Below, in pieces: positions 5,521-59,512 of a stretch of 64,000 bases of DNA (the stretch's first letter is position 1; each line of letters opens with the position of its first letter). The DNA comes from Octopus vulgaris (Eukaryota). The position numbers and the translations under genes are program-made. The DNA lies in the NCBI GenBank assembly GCA_951406725.2, contig OX597814.1:136338001-136402000 (forward strand), in the 5' to 3' direction. The notes beneath the pieces are model-generated. The model was not told the origin of the DNA. It was given only the letters and a program-made list of their open reading frames with translations, and searched no databases.

Positions 5521-7149
5521 TCCATCAAAATATTGCCACGTCTTAACTGACGGGCGCGCTCACCACCGTTTGAAACATTGATCCTGTAGGTATTTAAACT
5601 GCAGAGTCGTTACAAAGGGACATTTTAAAGTACTAATCTCTGCATTTAGATAAGCTTCCTATAAAGAACATTATTTATACTTGAATATAAACGTATACAT
5701 CACCTCAGCCTTTAATCTCTTTTTTTCCTTCATTTTACTCAGTAAAAAATACAGTAATAAAATATATTTTCTGCTTAAGTGACAAGCCTTTCATTGTCTG
5801 AATGTATCTATTTCCGGTTCTGAAATGGCGTTCTGCAGACTGGGGTGACATGTCCTTTTATATTCGTTCCTTTGCAGTCAAATAAAATCGTGATTTAAAG
5901 ATCTCCAAGTACCTCATAATGGGATGAACGTTTTCAATGTTTCATCCCATATTTATCTACTTTCTTATTTTTGGAAGAATATTTTCACATTACTGGATAG
6001 TAATGTTGATCAAGTCAATTTAGTTAGTTGCGTCCAGAAGTTATACTTTTTCTAGGACAAAATATTTAAAATCATACACACATAAAATAAAATGAAATAC
6101 AACTCAATTAGAAAGGTTGAAGTAAGAGATGTCTACACGAACGATATGGTTTAACTAAATATCAATGAGGGTGGTGGGTGGCAGATTCCGCAATGGACAA
6201 AATATCTTCTGATATCTAGTTACGTCCTTTTACATTCTAAGTTCAAATTTTGCCAGAATCGACTTTGGTTTTCATCCTATTATAGGTCTATGTGTACAGA
6301 AATAGTTAAGTATCGTGACAAAGTCTAACGATTTAAATCCCATTGAAAATTATATATTGTTGTCAATAAATAGATAAATAAATAAAATTACATTACATTA
6401 AATTAAATCAAGCGTCGTGGTTTCGGAAAAATTTCCTTTACATTTTTCTCTACTTCAAAAGAGAAATTGTCTTAATATTCCATGTCGAAAAATGGTTAAT
6501 CAAAAATGGCAAAACCGAGCTTTTAACAATGTCATATAACATAAAGATCAAATTGGCAAAAAAAAATAAAGAAAAAAAAAATTAGAGAAAATAAATAAAT
6601 AAAAATAGATCAATATGTTATTTCTAGTTTTATCCCTTATCAACAGAATTCCGAGGGAAAAGCAAAAGAATAAAAAAAAAAGGGAAAAGTAAAAAAAATA
6701 AGAAACAGAAAAGAAAAATATAACAAAAGCACAAAGCTTAATTGATAAACACTTTCTAAGAGTTGGACATCTCTAATTCAAACGCATCGGCCAAGTTTTC
6801 TATTATTTGCCAAGGTTTTCTGGGGAAAATAGATTTCTGGACATTTCTAAATAGAGTTTACAAGTACATTTTCGTGCCGAACAAATACGAATATTCCTAT
6901 AAAATAGCTACGCATATTCTGTACATTGAAATACATTGAAAACGTTTTATCACATTAGTATGGACCAGCAAATCTTTGTAAATTCTGATTCTATTTTCAC
7001 TGTAGTGGTTTCCCTAGAAATTGATTCATATGTTTCATTCATTCTTTAACTTTCACGGTATGTCAGCAATTTTCTACTTTCGAAGTTGTTATCTATCAAA
7101 CTTTGCATTATAGTTTCCACCATTGCTTAAAAATCATTCTATAGTAGTT

Positions 7150-11972: not shown

Positions 11973-12198
11973 CAATAATAATAAAGAGGTAAGATGAATT
12001 AATTTTATTATTATTGAAATATAATTTACTCCCTGATCGAAAACTGCAGTTTCTGCGGGATTGCTCGTAGCACAAACGTGGGTATTGAGGATAAATATGT
12101 GTTCACATTCGGCTGTATATTTTTGGAAGTGTTCGTTGAATATCGGTTATGCGATGACGCTTGATCGCGTACATCTTTAAATTTATATTTCGAAATGT

Positions 12199-12262
12199 TG
12201 CACTGAAGATGAGAAATAATTAAGTAAATATAACTTTACTTTAATCTCGAAACGCGTATGTA
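12199..12262 (+). ncRNA. Minimal type I hammerhead ribozyme
   Basis: ugca-CUGAAGA-u-gaga...ucuc-GAAAC-gc-GUA-ugua; AU-rich extended stem II; palindromic stem III ACGCGU. Confidence 0.7.
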
Positions 12263-14379: not shown

Positions 14380-15230
14380 TATTGATTTCAAATTTTGGCA
14401 CAAGACCAGCAGTTTTTGGGAAAGGGTAAGACAATTACATCCATTCCTGTGTTTAACTGGTACTTATTTTATCGACTTCAAAAACATGGAAGGCAAAGTC
14501 AATATCGGCGGAATTTGGACTTCGGACGTGAGAGCGGACGAAATGTCGCTAAGCATTTTGTCCGGTGTGATAACAAAGTAAAGAGAAAATATTACTCATC
14601 ACTTTTGTGTTTGTGAGTATGCATGTGTGCTTGTGAGTGTGCACACGTGTATGTGGAGGCACAAGGCCTCAAAATTGATGGGAGGGGATTAGTCGATTGC
14701 ATCGACCCCAGTGTTTCACAGGTACTTAATTTATCGACCCCGAAAAGATGAAAGGCAAACTTGATCTCGGTGGAATTTGAACTCAGAACGTAGCGACAGG
14801 CGAAATACCTATTTCTATTTCTTTACTACCCACAAGGGGCTAAACACGGAGGACAAACAAGGACAGACAAACAGATTAAGTCGATTATATCGACCCCAGT
14901 GCATAACTGGTACTTATTTAATCGATCCCGAAAGGATGAAAGGCAAAGTCGACCTCGGCAGAATTTGAACTCAGAACGTAACGGCAGACGAAATACCTAT
15001 TTCTTTACTACCCACTAGGGGCTAAACACAGAGTGGACAAACAAGGACAGACAAACGGATTAAGTCGATTATATCGACCCCAGTGCATAACTGGTACTTA
15101 TTTAATCGACTCCGAAAGGATGAAAGGCAAAGTCGACCTCGGCGGAATTTGAACTCAGAACGTAAAGACCGATGAAATACCTCTAAGCGTTTTGCCCGGA
15201 GTGGTGACGATTCTGCTACCACGCTGCCCT
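14380..15230 (-). mobile_element. SINE family A cluster: one copy (14380-14575) plus a three-unit concatemer (14657-15230)
   Basis: Repeated family A bodies joined at gaaatacc|tatttc junctions (~14809, ~14997). Confidence 0.85.
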
Positions 15231-24310: not shown

Positions 24311-24348
24311 TCTTTAACGTTTCGAGCCTACGCTCTTCAACAGAAAGA
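24311..24348 (-). ncRNA. Minimal hammerhead variant in the Penelope 3' end
   Basis: ucuuu-CUGUUGA-a-gagc-guag-gcuc-GAAAC-GUU-aaaga; one core substitution relative to CUGANGA. Confidence 0.6.
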
Positions 24349-24514: not shown

Positions 24515-24865
24515 GCTATTAGTGCGTAGGAGAGGTCTGGACGTGTGTATGTATAGGGTTGGTGTATGTATTAGTATGTATTAGTATGTATAAGGGTGTG
24601 TGTGTGTGTGTGTGTATGAGAGAGTATTAGTGCGTATGATAGGTCTGGACGTGCGTATGTATGGGGTTGGTGTATGTATTAGTATGTATTAGTATGTATT
24701 AGTACGTATTAGTATGTATAAGTGTGTGTGTGTGTGTATGAGAGAGTATAAGTGCGTATGAGGGGTCTGGACGTGTGTATGTATAGGGTTGGTGTATGTA
24801 TTAGTATGTATTAGTATGTATTAGTACGTATTAGTATGTATTAGTTGGTGTATGTATTAGTATGG
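24515..24865. repeat. Three ~110-125-bp tandem units inside the Penelope 3' region
   Basis: agtgcgtatga..ggtctggacgtg..tatgtat.gggttggtgtatgtattag recurs near 24520, 24628 and 24750. Confidence 0.85.
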
Positions 24866-25139
24866 CACATTATATAGGATGTGATGTGTAAAGTCGTGTG
24901 GTGTAGTGTGGAGAGAGGAGTGGGGAGGGGAGGGGGAGGGGAGGGGAGGAAAGGAGGGGGAGAGGGGGAGAGAGAAGGGGAGTGAGGGAGCAGAGGGAAG
25001 GGGAAGAGGGAAGGAGGGAGGGAGAAAGAGGGAAGAAGGGAAGGGGAGTAGGGGTGAAAGGATGAAGGACTGAAGAAGTAGGGGTCGGGGCGAAGGATAG
25101 GTGAGGAGGGGGAGAGGGGGGTAGATGAGGAGGGGGGGA

Positions 25140-25916
25140 GAGTTGAGACCAAATGGCGTATAAGAGCGAAGAGAGAAGATTAATTCCTGTTCACGGCGCA
25201 AACGGGAATCCGGATGGCCTCTGTGTAAGGACAAACCGAACACAGATAGGTGTTGCAAGGAGTGACCGGTGGAGCGGAAATGGCGTGAGACCGGTGTGTC
25301 GTTCGCAAGGTGGATGTCACGAAGGTGTTCCGCGAAACGGTCAGCCAAGCGGCGTCCCGTTTGTCCGATGTACAAGGAATGGCAGAGAGAGCAAGAGACG
25401 CAATAGATAATATTGCTGGAGGTGCAGGTGAAGGAGTGGATGATGGGATAGGGTCGATGGTGGGTGCTAGTGGGGAGGGTGGTGTTGGAGAGGTAAGGGC
25501 AAGTGCGGCAACGTGGGCGGGAGCAGGGGAACGAGCCGGGTTGGGAGGTAGGGTCAGAGAAGGAGCTATGGACCAAAAGGTCTCGAAGGTTGTGGGCTCG
25601 TTTGAAAGAGGGGAGGGGTCGGTTAGTGAAGAGGTGTGAAGTGGACGGGTCGGACTGGAGATGACGGAAAGCTCGAAGAATGGTGCGTTGGAGACGTAGG
25701 GTCGTGGGGTGGTAAGTGAGGGGAAAAGGGAGGCGGGAGACTACAGGGCGGGTTCGGGGAGAGAGAGCAGATACACGGTCCACGGACCGTGCTCTGGCAA
25801 GGGCGGTGTGGATAGTGGTGAGGGGGTATCCACGTAGGGTGAAGTGGTGAGCCATACGTTGAGACTGAGTCTCAAAGTCATGGTCGTCACTACAGAGCCT
25901 ACGTAGACGGAGGAAA
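25140..25916 (-). pseudogene. Penelope ORF fragment: RT C-terminus, Cys-rich linker, GIY-YIG endonuclease (uninterrupted frame)
   Basis: FLRLRRLCS...RGYP, PLTYHP, CSRPRCRTC, IIYCVSCSLCHSLYIGQT...RFAEH, GLN, all within ORF 24857-25969; the first ~17 residues of that ORF come from flanking DNA. Confidence 0.92.
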
Positions 25917-25926
25917 TATATATATA

Positions 25927-26490
25927 TGCCGATTAAAGCACATACACCGTTTAGGTTACCAGATGTCATCTATGGTTATGATATAATTGTCACTGGATCT
26001 ACGTCAGGAATTTCGCGGTGTTCGTTGAGTTTATAGTGAATGAGGGAAACGGAAAATGGAGCGGGCGTGGGATACGTCGATATATATATGTCAACACGTG
26101 TGGACCTAGCTTTCTTCATTTTATCTTTTAATTCGGATCCTTTGTCATGTTTTATCCTTCCATTACTTGAATTTATGTTTATGTTATGTATTCATTGTGT
26201 ATTCTAGCCAGATCCATCTACCGGTTATGACCCGGAAATGTTTTCCATCCATTGTCAGCATAACCAATATCCTACAGGCAACCACAACATGCAAAACGAA
26301 ACTCAGTATATGTAACGGAGTATCTTATTTATAGCCTGACACCTGACACGATGGAACCTGCAAATATTGATGGAACACAACTAGCTGTGCAATATCCCGC
26401 CGATAAAGGACAAATGCAGGATGTGTCGAAACGATCGTTGTTTTGAATAATGGTTCTTGCTAACTCCATTTTCCGTTTCCCTATTCATTA
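25927..26490. mobile_element. Second member of the 9.4-10 kb fold-back family, with a decayed hammerhead
   Basis: 25927-26061 is the reverse complement of ~9893-10027; 26250-26490 matches the right arm; GAAAC-gatc-GTT at 26428-26439 but the CUGAUGA core is partly deleted. Confidence 0.7.
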
Positions 26491-31838: not shown

Positions 31839-32450
31839 TTATTCATTGCAACCAGTCCTATGTGCACCTCTCCACTTGATCCGATTTAGAGCATCATTTT
31901 CCCAATCACATATTTTCATATCTAGTTTCTTCAGGTTTCCCTTCACACAGTCTTTATACCTTTTCCTCGGATTATGTTGTGGTCGCTTACCAGAGTTGAG
32001 GTCACCATAAAAAAGGCGCTTTGGCAAACGCTCGTCTTTCATTCTAATAACATGTCCAGTCCATCTCATTTGGGCCAAGATAATATTTTGTTTAATTGAG
32101 CTGCAACATGCAATGCGCAAAACCTCTGTATCTGGTATGAAATATTCCCACTTGACTCCTGAAATACATCTGAGGCACTTTTGATGAAATCTCTCCAGCA
32201 TTTTTATGTGACGCTTGTAAGTGGTCCATGTCTCACTTGAATAAAGAGGTGTAGACAATACACACACTTTATAGACATTGATTTTTGTCTGCAGGGGAAT
32301 ACCTCTATCCGCCCATACTCGTTTTTCGAGCTTTCCAAATGCAACACTTCCCTTCCCTATTCGATTGTATACCTCTGCATCAAGACTACCATCTCTTGAC
32401 AGTGTGCTTTCTAGGTAAACAAAGGTGTTCCATTCACAAAAAGTTGTACA
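31839..32450 (-). pseudogene. RTE-clade LINE, RT C-terminal region
   Basis: YLESTLS...AFGKLEKRVW...LYSSETWT...RWTGHVIRMKDERLPKRLFYG...RKRYKD motifs typical of RTE/BovB-like elements. Confidence 0.92.
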
Positions 32451-33050
32451 AGTCTCAGAAAGAAGACTTGCAAAAATAACTCAGGAGTCTTAAAGACACT
32501 TGGTGGAGAAATTTGTCAAAGGAAGTACAGGCAGCCTATGACAGGAAAGATATTAATAGTTTCTATATTTTATTGCAGCAAGCTTTTGAACCGCAATCTT
32601 CATCATTATATGTTCCCTTGAGGTCGATAGATGGAAATGAGGTTATTAAAGATCCTCCTAGAATAATGAATAGATGGAGAGAACACTTTGCAGATCTTTC
32701 CTACAATCCGTCTCTAGTGAACTTGGATATCATAAACAACATTCTGCAAAGAGAGATAGTGCAACACATGGATGATACACCTTCAATTGAAGAAGAAAAT
32801 CTGACATTATGTAAACTGAGATCAGGTAAAGCTCCTGGATTGGATGGTATTACAGTTGAAATTCTGAAAGCAGGAGGGGATGATATTTCATCTGAAATTC
32901 ATAACCTGGTAACTCGAGTTTGGAATGAATTTTCTGTGCAATAAAAATGGATAAATGGCATTCTGATCTCTGTATACAAGGGTAAGCGCCCGAAAGCAGT
33001 GCGTGATAATTCTAGAGGGATAACTCTTTTGGCACATACCGGGAAGATAC
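32450..33050 (+). pseudogene. RTE-clade LINE, EN-RT linker and RT start (inverted relative to the neighbouring piece)
   Basis: RWREHF, GKAPGLDGITVEILKAGG, VYKGK...NSRGITLL; internal stops. Confidence 0.92.
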
Positions 33051-34651: not shown

Positions 34652-35045
34652 GTGGTGACCTGGCAGAAACGTTAGCACGCCGGGCGAAATGCTTAGCGGT
34701 ATTTCGTCTGCGTTACGTTGTGAGTTCGAATTCCGCCGAGGTCGACTTTGCCTTTCATCCTTTCGGGGTCGATAAATTAAGTACCAGTTGCACACTGGGG
34801 TCGATATAATCGACTTAATACCTATGTCTGTCCTTGTTTGTCCCCTCTGTGTTTAGCCCCTTGTGGGTAATAAAGAAATAGGTAGTTTGTCTGTCTTTAT
34901 ATTCTGGGTTTGAACGCCGCCGCGTTCGACTTTGCCTTTCATCGTTTGGAGGTCGATAAAACAAGCACCAGTCGAGCATTGTGGTCGATGAATGGACTTA
35001 TCCTCTCCTTTGTAACTGCTGGCGCAGTGCCAAAATTTAAAATGT
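34652..35045 (+). mobile_element. SINE family A dimer (A2 joined to a headless A copy)
   Basis: Junction aaagaaata|ggta at ~34880. Confidence 0.85.
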
Positions 35046-35824: not shown

Positions 35825-35889
<65 letters not shown>

Positions 35890-35891
<2 letters not shown>

Positions 35892-36480
35892 CATGCGCAT
35901 ACACATTAAATACAGGACACACCACGTAAACCACGGAAAACACATAAACATACGTCTAACTCTTCCTCAGTTGTCGACTGCTTATTACTCCCTATTTCGA
36001 GCATTCAACAACAAGATAGGAAAACTTCATAACACAGCAGCATCCAGAAATTTTTAAAATATAAAATTTGTGGAGAGTTAGGGCTTCGAACGAACAAACA
36101 GCAACAGAGTGGACGTACAGAGTAAACACTCAACAAAGACAAGCATTAAGGACCGTTAGACCAAGTCGTATTATAATGGGTAACGCCTGGGAGAAATTTT
36201 GAATAAAGAGAAGAGAAAAAAATGTCGAGAAGCGAGGGAAATAACGTCCAGCTGGATGGACGTCTCGTCCAGAAAAGACAGAGATGAGAGAAATGAACAA
36301 GCAGGCAGAGGGGAAAGGGGATAAGAGAGAGGATGAAGGAAAGAAATAAAGGGAGTGAGGAGATGGAAGATAGTAGGGAGTGGAAGAAAGAGAGGGGACA
36401 GCAAAGAACGAGGGGAGAAACGGAAAATAAAGAGGATTATTGAGGGATAGTAATTCTATATTATTACTATATCTATCCTA
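35890..36480 (-). mobile_element. Non-coding retroelement-like fragment with permuted hammerhead and pyrimidine-rich tract
   Basis: Layout parallels 23331-24158 (purine-rich plus strand, motif near one end, microsatellite flanks). Confidence 0.45.
35959..36022 (-). ncRNA. Non-circularly permuted hammerhead-like motif, core intact
   Basis: uuccu-AUC-uuguug-uugaau-gcuc-GAAAU-aggga-12 nt-cgacaa-CUGAGGA-a-gagu; P1, P2 and P3 all pair. Confidence 0.7.
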
Positions 36481-36618
36481 CGTTATATCTGCACAGCTCG
36501 GTGCGGCCCCAAAATCTGGTATTGCCAGTTGGTATCTTTAAGCTGTAACCGGCATAATAAAATAGGAGCTTTTATATGAGTATTCAAAGCGTTTCCTGTT
36601 AACGAACTTAAAAGGTAA

Positions 36619-36676
<58 letters not shown>

Positions 36677-39153: not shown

Positions 39154-41359
39154 CAGTGTCGTAAACCGGGGTCCATACGGTCCCTGAGGGTACATATAAG
39201 ATTTTGTGGGGTCCATGCAACAAAATAGTAAGTTAGAGATCCACAAAAAATTTGCTTTAGATGTACGTATTGGTAGGTATTGCAAGAAATAGCTAGGTTT
39301 GTTTCTCTAATATTTTACATAGTTCAATCTACACAAGTTAATGTGTGAAAAACAAAGTAGTAATTTGGAAAAAAAAGTTTCTATAAAACTAGTTTTCATA
39401 CATCGAATGGCTATAGAGGTCAATATAAGATTTTTGTGGTCCACGCAACAAAATAGAAAATTGGGAATCCACAATGATATTTTAAGGGTCCCTGAAGAAA
39501 ATTTGTTTTAGATATATGTATTTGTATGTATTGCGAGAAGCAGCCTGGTTTCTTTCTCTAACATTTTATAAAGTAGGAACTTGGGAAGAATCTTTTATAA
39601 AACTAGTTTTTAAACATCGAATGGCCTTTTTATAAAACTAGTTTTTAAACATCGAATGACCTTTTTGTAAAACTAGTTTTTAAACATCGAATGGCCTTTT
39701 TATAAATCTAGTTTTTAAACATCGAATAGCCTTTTTATAAATCTAGTTTTTAAACATCGAATGGCCTTTTTAATAAATCTAGTTTTTAAACATCGAATGG
39801 CCTTTTTATAAATCTAGTTTTAAACATCGAATGGCCTTTTTATAAATCTAGTTTTTAAACATCGAATGGCCTTTTTATAAATCTAGTTTTTAAACAGCGA
39901 ATGACCTTTTTATAAAACTAGTTTTTAAACATCGAATGGCCTCTTTATAAAACTAGTTTTTAAACATCGAATGGCCTTTTTATAAAACTAGTTTTTAAAC
40001 ATCGAATAGCCTTTTTATAAATCTAGTTTTTAAACATCGAATGGCCTTTTTATAAAACTAGTTTTTAAACATCGAATGGCCTTTTTATAAATCTAGTTTT
40101 AAACATCGAATGGCCTTTTTATAAAACTAGTTTTTAAACATCGAATGGCCTTTTTATAAAACTAGTTTTTAAACATCGAATAGCCTTTTTATAAATCTAG
40201 TTTTTAAACATCGAATGGCCTTTTTATAAAACTAGTTTTTAAACATCGAATAGCCTTTTTATAAAACTAGTTTTTAAACATCGAATAGCCTTTTTATAAA
40301 TCTAGTTTTAAACATAGAATGGCCTTTTTATAAAACTAGTTTTTAAACATCGAATGGCCTTTTTATAAAACTAGTTTTTAAACATCGAATAGCCTTTTTA
40401 TAAATCTAGTTTTTAAACATCGAATAGCCTTCTTATAAATCTAGTTTTTAAACATCGAATGACCTTTTTGTAAAACTAGTTTTTAAACATCGAATAGGCC
40501 TTTTTATAAATCTAGTTTTTAAACATCGAATAGCCTTTTTATAAATCTAGTTTTTAAACATCGAATGGCCTTTTTATAAATCTAGTTTTTAAACATCGAA
40601 TAGCCTTTTTATAAATCTAGTTTTTAAACATCGAATGGCCTTTTTATAAAACTAGTTTTTAAACATCGAATGGCCTTTTTATAAAACTAGTTTTTAAACA
40701 TCGAATAGCCTTTTTATAAATCTAGTTTTTAAACATCGAATAGCCTTTTTATAAAACTAGTTTTTAAACATCGAATAGCTTTTTTATAAATCTAGTTTTT
40801 AAACATCGAATGGCCTTTTTATAAATCTAGTTTTTAAACATCGAATGGCCTTTTTATAAAACTAGTTTTTAAACATCGAATGGCCTTTTTATAAAACTAG
40901 TTTTTAAACATCGAATGGCCTTTTTATAAAACTAGTTTTTAAACATCGAATAGCCTTTTTATAAATCTAGTTTTTAAACATCGAATGGCCTTTTTATAAA
41001 ACTAGTTTTTAAACATCGAATGGCCTTTTTATAAAACTAGTTTTTAAACATCGAATGGCCTTTTTATAAAACTAGTTTTTAAACATCGAATAGCCTTTTT
41101 ATAAATCTAGTTTTTAAACATCGAATGGCCTTTTCATAAAACTAGTTTTTAAACATCGAATGACCTTTTTATAAAACTAGTTTTTAAACATCGAATAGCC
41201 TTTTTATAAATCTAGTTTTTAAACATCGAATGGCCTTTTTATAAAACTAGTTTTTAAACATCGAATGGCCTTTTTATAAAACTAGTTTTTAAACATCGAA
41301 TGCCCTTTGATCATTAATCAAAGGGGTTTATAAATAAAAAAAATGGTTGAGAACTCCTG
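39154..41359. mobile_element. hAT (Charlie-like) MITE expanded by an internal minisatellite
   Basis: Ends cagtgtcgtaaacc / ggttgagaactcctg; 8-bp flanks atttggat / ctttagat (6 of 8 match); related to 62837-63425. Confidence 0.7.
39592..41305. repeat. 35-bp minisatellite, roughly 49 copies
   Basis: Unit tttttataaa(a/t)ctagtttttaaacatcgaat(g/a)gcc; copy number estimated as length/35. Confidence 0.95.
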
Positions 41360-58485: not shown

Positions 58486-58638
58486 ATGAACATTATTTAC
58501 ATTATTTAAATTTGACGGATATTTGTTCTCATCTTGTTTATTGTTAACACAACGTTTCGGCTGATATACTCTCCAGCCTTCATCAGGTGTCTCGGGGAAA
58601 TTTCGAAACTGGGTTCTCAATCCTAAGGTATTTTTCGA

Positions 58639-59210: not shown

Positions 59211-59512
<302 letters not shown>

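Follow-up and report, generated by a model that had tools for sequence, protein, structure and literature searches.

The window analyzed here is a 64,000-nt stretch of the Octopus vulgaris genome. Its minus strand carries, at 36023–35959, the hammerhead core CUGANGA, GAAA and NUH, flanked by stems I and III that covary among genomic copies (Table 1). All the hammerhead elements that a sequence-only reading of this DNA had claimed are present, with their positions confirmed. As that reading stated, their order lies outside the circular types I–III: a descriptor covering six permutations reads the site as SGC, i.e. S-G-C, and gives 0 matches in 60 dinucleotide shuffles of the window. Standard models had been expected to miss such a motif, and the Rfam 15 models give no match in the whole window at the gathering score. 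Non-circularly permuted hammerheads, which the same reading took to be already reported, are indeed found in Eckert 2023 (PMC10085705), where this order is type SGC.

In the window copy, P3 is 8 bp long with wobbles and P1 is 6 bp including one G-U pair, while a possible downstream P2 of 4 bp follows CUGAGGA after one inserted base. The 12 nt that had been described as a spacer actually pair with an upstream strand to form a fourth helix, helix I. The earlier description was thus incomplete, and the context of a Penelope-like element (PLE) and the link to Naiads were also absent from it. Compared with the majority of its subfamily A, the window copy has five private changes within the motif (36033, 36010, 36003, 35981 and 35963). 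Its best knot-free fold (−22.9 kcal/mol, z −0.81) is no better than those of shuffles and pairs the P3 strand with the core, which is then buried in a rival helix. The copy is 5'-truncated and single, and it is not among the matches of a strict descriptor for the full four-block form described below. It is probably an inactive fossil.

Table 1 Features of the window at and beside the hammerhead-type motif
Feature	Positions	Strand	Basis or remark
(AC)n microsatellite adjoining the element's 3' end, likely insertion target	35832..35890	.	
5'-truncated non-coding repeat of PLE type (subfamily A); comprises CT-rich tract, ribozyme motif and short, internally deleted tail, ends at (TG)n	about 35891..36450	-	73–79% identity to other copies over about 35900–36450
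P2a, upstream P2 partner strand (GAUGCU)	36039..36044	-	
Helix I 5' strand (fourth helix)	36029..36037	-	
P3 5' strand, ends in U16.1	36016..36023	-	sequence and covariation
C17 of the AUC triplet; predicted cut 36015/36014	36015	-	sequence; position by analogy to hammerheads
P1 5' strand; one G-U via private C-to-U at 36010	36009..36014	-	sequence and covariation
P2b (GCUC) 5' of GAAA, ends in C11.1	35999..36002	-	sequence
GAAA core (35998–35995) and P3 3' strand	35988..35998	-	sequence and covariation
Helix I 3' strand; 0–1 nt short of P1 3' strand	35978..35985	-	
P1 3' strand (35976–35971) and CUGAGGA core (35970–35964)	35964..35976	-	sequence and covariation
Inserted A (35963) and downstream P2 candidate GAGU (35962–35959), the P2 partner of the sequence-only reading	35959..35963	-	

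The repeat that hosts the motif near its 3' end has a unit of about 700–850 nt. The unit opens with a short conserved start that includes a splice-donor-like motif, and continues with a CT-rich tract, the ribozyme motif and a tail. The splice-donor-like motif of the unit start has 2,185 matches in the genome versus 1 for the control. At six loci (L003, L009, L028, L098, L118 and L121) the unit begins with a short ATG-like start, after which come a strong splice-donor-like motif and an extended pyrimidine tract, a layout that is possibly a retained PLE intron. No ORF was found in the units or loci of the window family. A microsatellite lies 60–420 nt past the motif in 48 of 60 loci, versus 49 of 177 background bins. 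Tandem repeats are present in 7 of the 60 loci and inverted pieces in 12, although these 12 include some neighbours or double counts of one locus. L327 has two motifs 752 nt apart with a short terminal repeat of the unit start, and six tandem pairs of family E are spaced 699–855 nt apart. Tandem units that each carry a hammerhead, as in retrozymes, occur at L003, L028, L327 and L329/L330, a minority of loci. Two motif pairs are spaced more closely as a result of local rearrangement: an inverted pair 72 nt apart at L266, and C1:88838402 and 88838530, 128 nt apart. Partial tandem and inverted insertions, a short tail, 5' truncation and microsatellite targets are the marks of a non-autonomous PLE, and the microsatellite, tandem and inverted-insertion features are among those that the accessible part of Craig 2021 (PMC8557442) gives for PLEs. 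The window repeat is likely a non-autonomous PLE.

No coding parent of A–E was identified. Neptune and Naiad protein queries returned nothing contiguous in 60–61 loci, six long regions and 15 family-E loci, which is a small sample, and six regions with the 5' motif and the ribozyme at suggestive distances contained no PLE ORF. The window family therefore resembles PLEs only in its architecture and Naiads only in the layout of its ribozyme. Several candidate parents were rejected. The segment at 36460–36620 (−), upstream of the element, is no end of a PLE ORF and belongs to a separate repeat family; this fragment has 447 candidates and lies next to (TA)n, and other copies of it are arranged as inverted repeats. 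The young Neptune-like PLE at 24857–25969 (−) ends in an ordinary minimal hammerhead, and a second Neptune-like family, found beside L006, has the motif in the 3' region of 0 of 25 loci. L199, where a Naiad reverse transcriptase (RT) lies near a fragment of the family, is a chance neighbourhood with unrelated DNA between the two.

A pattern search of the 2.8-Gb octopus genome, which had been proposed as a check, found the G-then-C core pattern at 2,702 places versus 3 for the reversed pattern. The pattern of family E occurs at 6,924 places versus 0 for the control; many of these motifs are identical (L322:4083–4174 (+), L328–L342), and this family is the best object for activity tests. For the window repeat, a first look at the genome gave 1,184 candidates, 40 of which were scored. 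Of 112 anchored copies, 91 came from the G-then-C core pattern and 21 from the 31 subfamily-A loci; the alignment holds 91 of the 112, with 21 truncated or gapped rows omitted. Since its rows were selected by core patterns and the shuffle controls ignore relatedness, the figures that follow are to be read within those limits. P1 and P3 are paired in 89.3% of cells, compared with 33–55% for slid controls, and 9 of the 15 pairs have changed on both sides; the aligner misplaced subfamily C1 in P3, which depresses the count for the two stems. The majorities of six subfamilies preserve 65 of the 66 Watson-Crick pairs of P1 and P3, which only 1 of 720 strand permutations reaches; this 1/720 is not a p-value, since the subfamilies share ancestry and these stems helped to define them. 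Some of the P1 changes could be CpG decay, which cannot explain the P3 transversions or the G-C to C-G change of subfamily D. In the 13 rows of family E, 94.3% of cells are paired and 11 of 26 pairs have changed on both sides.

All seven majorities tested retain the catalytic residues, the U16.1-A15.1 pair and a non-G at position 17 while their stems differ. The cleavage triplets across groups are AUC, GUC, AUA and GUA, and an inserted base followed by G is retained after the core in A–D and in Naiad. Reading the same copies as GCS was rejected, with P3 of only 3–4 bp. We have little doubt that the motif is a selected hammerhead-type structure. The family pattern has no match in the metagenome and viral contigs searched. 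Related copies are present in four sets of putative-RNA contigs, and these count neither way on expression because the contigs are unstranded and their ends are not visible.

When the apical loop is constrained to stay open, S and G together fold as a rod of median 12–17 bp; in the majority of copies from all eight groups, this rod ends no more than about 1 nt from the 3' strand of P1. Its lower part is helix I, which shows two-sided changes at 5 of 9 pairs in family E and corresponds to the helix marked 'I' in Eckert 2023 (PMC10085705). Of the three stems described in the sequence-only reading, P1 and P3 pair and covary, but the P2 formed with the strand after CUGAGGA does not hold as the general fold of the family, for across 89 rows just 2 cells show a two-sided change. 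A strand upstream of the motif, P2a, pairs better in B, C, D, E and Naiad and covaries, providing 5–6 Watson-Crick pairs including G10.1-C11.1. The upstream strand beats the downstream one in 35/41, 12/13, 7/8, 5/5, 13/13 and 15/16 copies of the six non-A groups (B, C, D, E, Naiad), i.e. in 87 of 96 non-A copies; the search window was 22 nt upstream versus 13 nt downstream, and control windows of the same length paired much more weakly. In subfamily A the two strands are about equal, the upstream one being better in only 9 of 20 copies (and in 4 of 5 copies of A2).

Of 78 rows, 49 have A-U and 20 have U-A as the distal pair of P2a. The strand is wholly different in sequence between B–D, E and Naiad, yet 5–6 Watson-Crick pairs form in each; within family E it is invariant, which proves nothing alone. 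In 32 of the 78 rows, including subfamily A, the 10.1–11.1 pair is absent in register from the upstream strand. P2a forms all of P2 in B–E and Naiad, but in subfamily A it pairs in register at the distal positions alone, with three such pairs kept, and the proximal pairs can come from the downstream strand. P2 may therefore be mixed in this subfamily, which may have moved part of the stem to the strand after the core, and the GAGU candidate of Table 1 is believable mainly within it. Stem II with G10.1-C11.1 would be formed by the upstream strand in B–E and Naiad, and by a downstream or mixed strand in A, where the partner is ambiguous.

In most subfamilies the partner of P2 precedes the entire motif, so the core is split at A9/G10.1 and the blocks follow the order P2a, I, S, G, I', P1'-CUGANGA. 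In full, sequence and covariation give P2a, helix I, P3, NUH, P1, linker, P2b, GAAA, P3', helix I', P1' and CUGANGA. With this order, helix I and P3 make one long rod that holds the cut site in its apical loop, and P2a and P1'-CUGANGA exit at the rod base. A strict four-block descriptor has 23 distinct matches in 1.04 Mb of sampled genomic DNA versus 0 in 3 shuffles. The form of the helix I–P3 joint varies, being about 7 × 7 with an AGUA/GAA pattern, a candidate loop E, in B–D, 2 × 5 in E and 3 × 6 in Naiad. In several published Naiads, read by eye, one side of the joint has 0–1 nt. We consider the split core very probably the main form outside subfamily A. The six types of Eckert 2023 (PMC10085705), as set out in the accessible part of that paper, assume that block C is never interrupted, and the split core lies outside all six permutations. 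The uninterrupted block C that marks type SGC, P1'-CUGANGA-P2 with no more than 1–2 inserted nt, is lacking in B–E and Naiad and possibly present in subfamily A. Because the split core breaks the six-permutation assumption, current descriptors miss the motif.

The octopus genome links this layout to Naiads. The four-block motif lies downstream of a Naiad RT on the same strand at 8 of the 30 top loci and 5 of 40 weaker loci, and an autonomous octopus Naiad PLE carries it in the 3' UTR. Short motifs taken from published octopus Naiad sequences have 386 exact matches in the genome versus 0 for the control, and a degenerate RT pattern for the squid-type Naiad lineage has none. In the portions of Craig 2021 (PMC8557442) available to us, Naiads are described as being without canonical hammerheads; some families are marked only 'HHR_core' or 'HHR_half_core', Naiad_Ovul being marked 'HHR_half_core'. 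We inspected the consensus sequences of that paper by eye, covering 60 of 62 CTGATGA places, 23 of 23 CTGACGA, 30 of 43 CTGAAGA, 25 of 25 CTGAGGA and 30 of 87 CCGAAA, and the four-block form was seen in about 10 of 54 records. Seven are named by their headers (Obim, Ovul, Amil, Aacu, Anas, Movir-2 and Plae) and three are known by position only, probably Bfor (P1 of 2–3 bp), a Clytia family and EuTe. In Esco the order is S-G-C, and P1, P3 and the 18-nt spacing from U16.1 to GAAA found in A–C are present, but no clear P2. Seven nematode Naiad records, also read by eye, have the CSG order in clean form together with helix I (Nbra-2, Nbra-3 and Hcon identified by header, the other four by position). 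In the bivalve records the motif was not seen by eye, a reading in which matches spanning line ends would be missed. Several arthropod Naiads in supplement S5 of PMC8557442 have a C-run before CUGANGA and flanking helices that fit neither form, possibly further variants.

We infer that a single ring of blocks, opened at three different points, underlies SGC, CSG and the split form. Since the nematode CSG would be the same ring opened elsewhere, the seemingly ribozyme-less Naiad clade would have carried non-circular hammerheads from early on. As a possible but tentative synthesis, we suggest that Naiads across animal phyla, together with about ten thousand non-autonomous copies in the octopus genome, may carry a seventh kind of hammerhead, made of four blocks with the core broken at A9/G10.1, which may act as a head-to-tail, strand-swapped pair that counts tandem copies, and that Naiads may have had non-circular hammerheads since early in their history.

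Comparison with known systems places the motif close to several of them. Type SGC (HRIMA-1 and its variants in the accessible part of PMC10085705) shares the S-G-CUGANGA order, the pseudoknotted P1 and P2, the short P1-P2 linker and an additional helix that links stems I and II at their far sides. It differs in its continuous block C, whereas the P2 strand of the window family is mostly detached at the 5' end; a further difference is that helix I of the window family is tied to P3 on both strands. Type CSG of the same paper has the same ring of blocks and the same helix I, opened elsewhere, but its two metagenomic sequences have a continuous block C, and the window motif is not CSG. The minimal type I hammerheads of animal PLEs and non-LTR retrozymes (PMC4209133; bioRxiv 10.64898/2026.07.22.740005), in what these sources were seen to describe, resemble the motif in lying in a PLE-type 3' repeat, in a base inserted after A9, in tandem units of several hundred bases and in a proposed need for two copies. 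They are circular, with a vestigial P3 through which they pair (PMC4209133), whereas the window motif is non-circular with a long P3, and it is not the type I hammerhead of non-LTR retrozymes. The Naiad clade (PMC8557442) shares with the window family a preference for (TA)n, tandem and inverted insertions and a 30–40 bp tail. Unlike Naiads, the window family has no ORF, and the Naiad arrangement of N-terminal GIY-YIG, CxC motif and C-terminal RT is missing from it; no sequence homology to Naiads was found beyond the layout of the motif. A search of the literature, mostly outside subscription journals, found no non-circular or split-core hammerhead described in an animal genome or in Naiads, and a motif with a scrambled, split core is apparently undescribed.

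How such a motif might work is suggested by its geometry. Helix I starts 0–2 nt from P2a and P1' and hence likely stacks above both, and short links connect its far end with that of P3. Rules of thumb are 2.8 Å per bp and 6.5 Å per nt. By this rough estimate a monomer with helix I stacked above P2 must span 56–67 Å, while the shorter link reaches 20–26 Å in the window copy, E and Naiad, and the 7-nt links of B and D about 52 Å. With helix I folded back by about 180 degrees, the distance is only 17–28 Å and a monomer is borderline possible. On this estimate the monomer fold appears strained.

We therefore tentatively favour, at close to an even chance, that the motif cuts the RNA of the element by two tandem units pairing with each other. 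The base strands of one unit would pair into the apical loop of the second, giving a complete, normal hammerhead active site, while self-capping would be strained, given how short the links from helix I to P3 are. Within a tandem transcript arranged head to tail, each unit would cut the other to release unit-length RNA of about 700–850 nt, and a lone copy would stay uncut. A PLE protein, likely that of a Naiad, would then copy the unit RNA into microsatellites. The pairing logic is the same as for the dimeric minimal hammerheads of other animal PLEs, where dimer dependence was proposed and the part of PMC4209133 consulted gives weak cleavage in dimeric constructs and none in the monomer.

Several observations count against this explanation. 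Single-unit SGC and CSG RNAs were cleaved during transcription (PMC10085705), and only 7 of 60 loci are tandem, both of which speak against pairing between units. According to the accessible part of PMC11167929, cleavage by an Anolis PLE ribozyme needed protein and the ribozyme was dispensable for insertion in vitro, which argues against a simple role for cleavage. The knot-free fold that buries the core of the window copy, and a rival hairpin of P2b with the bases after P3 that recurs in subfamilies A–D, likewise count against it. So do the 10.1–11.1 pair missing in 32 of 78 rows, the failure of the window copy to match the strict four-block descriptor, the short fold-back distance with the longer links of B and D, and the lack of a coding parent in the loci sampled.

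The same four-block, split-core ribozyme might instead act as a monomer, helix I bending back along P2/P3 through a bulge or internal loop to close a cage. We regard this as rather unlikely. All the structural evidence for four helices applies to it equally, most copies are single, and the fold-back distance is near or within linker reach; moreover, SGC examples in Eckert 2023 (PMC10085705) have 0 nt between helix I and P3 and cleave as constructs of monomer length. What argues against it is that the helix I–P3 joint has no common form, so that a straight rod fits better than a conserved hinge. The fold of the sequence-only reading, an ordinary SGC monomer as in Eckert's types with P2 from the strand right after CUGANGA, appears improbable for the family. 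It draws support from subfamily A, where the downstream strand gives 4–5 bp including G10.1-C11.1 at an equal duplex energy (−3.1 versus −3.2, downstream versus upstream), and from the inserted base and G kept after the core. Yet two-sided change in the downstream P2 is almost nil, this stem is only 2 bp in Naiad and is offset by 5 nt in E, and the non-A copies prefer the upstream strand, in windows of unequal length.

A conserved structure that does not cleave in vivo, and that the PLE protein uses for recognition or assembly, we hold to be decidedly improbable. Low or protein-dependent activity has been given for animal PLE hammerheads (PMC11167929, PMC4209133), no RNA-seq ends were found at the cut site in Anolis according to the part of PMC11167929 available, and the rival folds bury the core. 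Against it, the catalytic residues, U16.1-A15.1 and a non-G at position 17 persist in every majority tested despite changing stems. Finally, a chance arrangement in one passively amplified repeat can hardly be entertained, for although high copy number alone is no proof of selection and CpG decay can mimic some P1 compensations, transversion compensations occur in P3 and P1 between subfamilies, E and Naiad keep all four helices despite wholly different stem sequences, and the descriptors give 0 matches in shuffles.

Non-circular hammerheads have so far come from metatranscriptomes and metagenomes, with one weak bacterial case only in the genomes of known organisms, and type SGC from metatranscriptomes alone (both from the accessible part of PMC10085705); here they are abundant in an animal genome. 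The absence of hammerheads from Naiads has served as an argument that PLEs can dispense with them, and the motif offers a direct answer to why Naiad PLEs seemed ribozyme-less. The role of the tandem pLTRs becomes testable with 80-nt RNAs. If true, a natural strand-swapped hammerhead would also be a new scaffold for trans-acting ribozymes.

Other elements were noted in the window and in the genome. The Neptune-like PLE at 24857–25969 (−), with RT thumb and GIY-YIG, belongs to a young family of 19,484 candidates, many 97% identical, with open frames of up to 1,214 aa and a U3-variant minimal hammerhead at 24318–24340 (−). A second young Neptune-like family (L237–L261; 14,676 candidates, 811-aa frames) has no clear hammerhead in the 3' region scanned. 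Ordinary minimal type I hammerheads are present in inverted copies of another repeat at 59394–59427 (+) and 58553–58586 (−), and a minimal type I hammerhead-like motif with a long loop 2 lies at about 12200–12260 (+); a GCS reading that the descriptor gives at 12188 is really an ordinary type I motif. LINE reverse-transcriptase ORF fragments, presumably RTE-like by their motifs, occupy 31839–32944 (−). Copies of an abundant SINE-like repeat lie at 14686–15182 and 34660–34830, one of them as a 184-bp tandem, and 39593–41308 is a 35-bp satellite of 49 copies with 95% matches.
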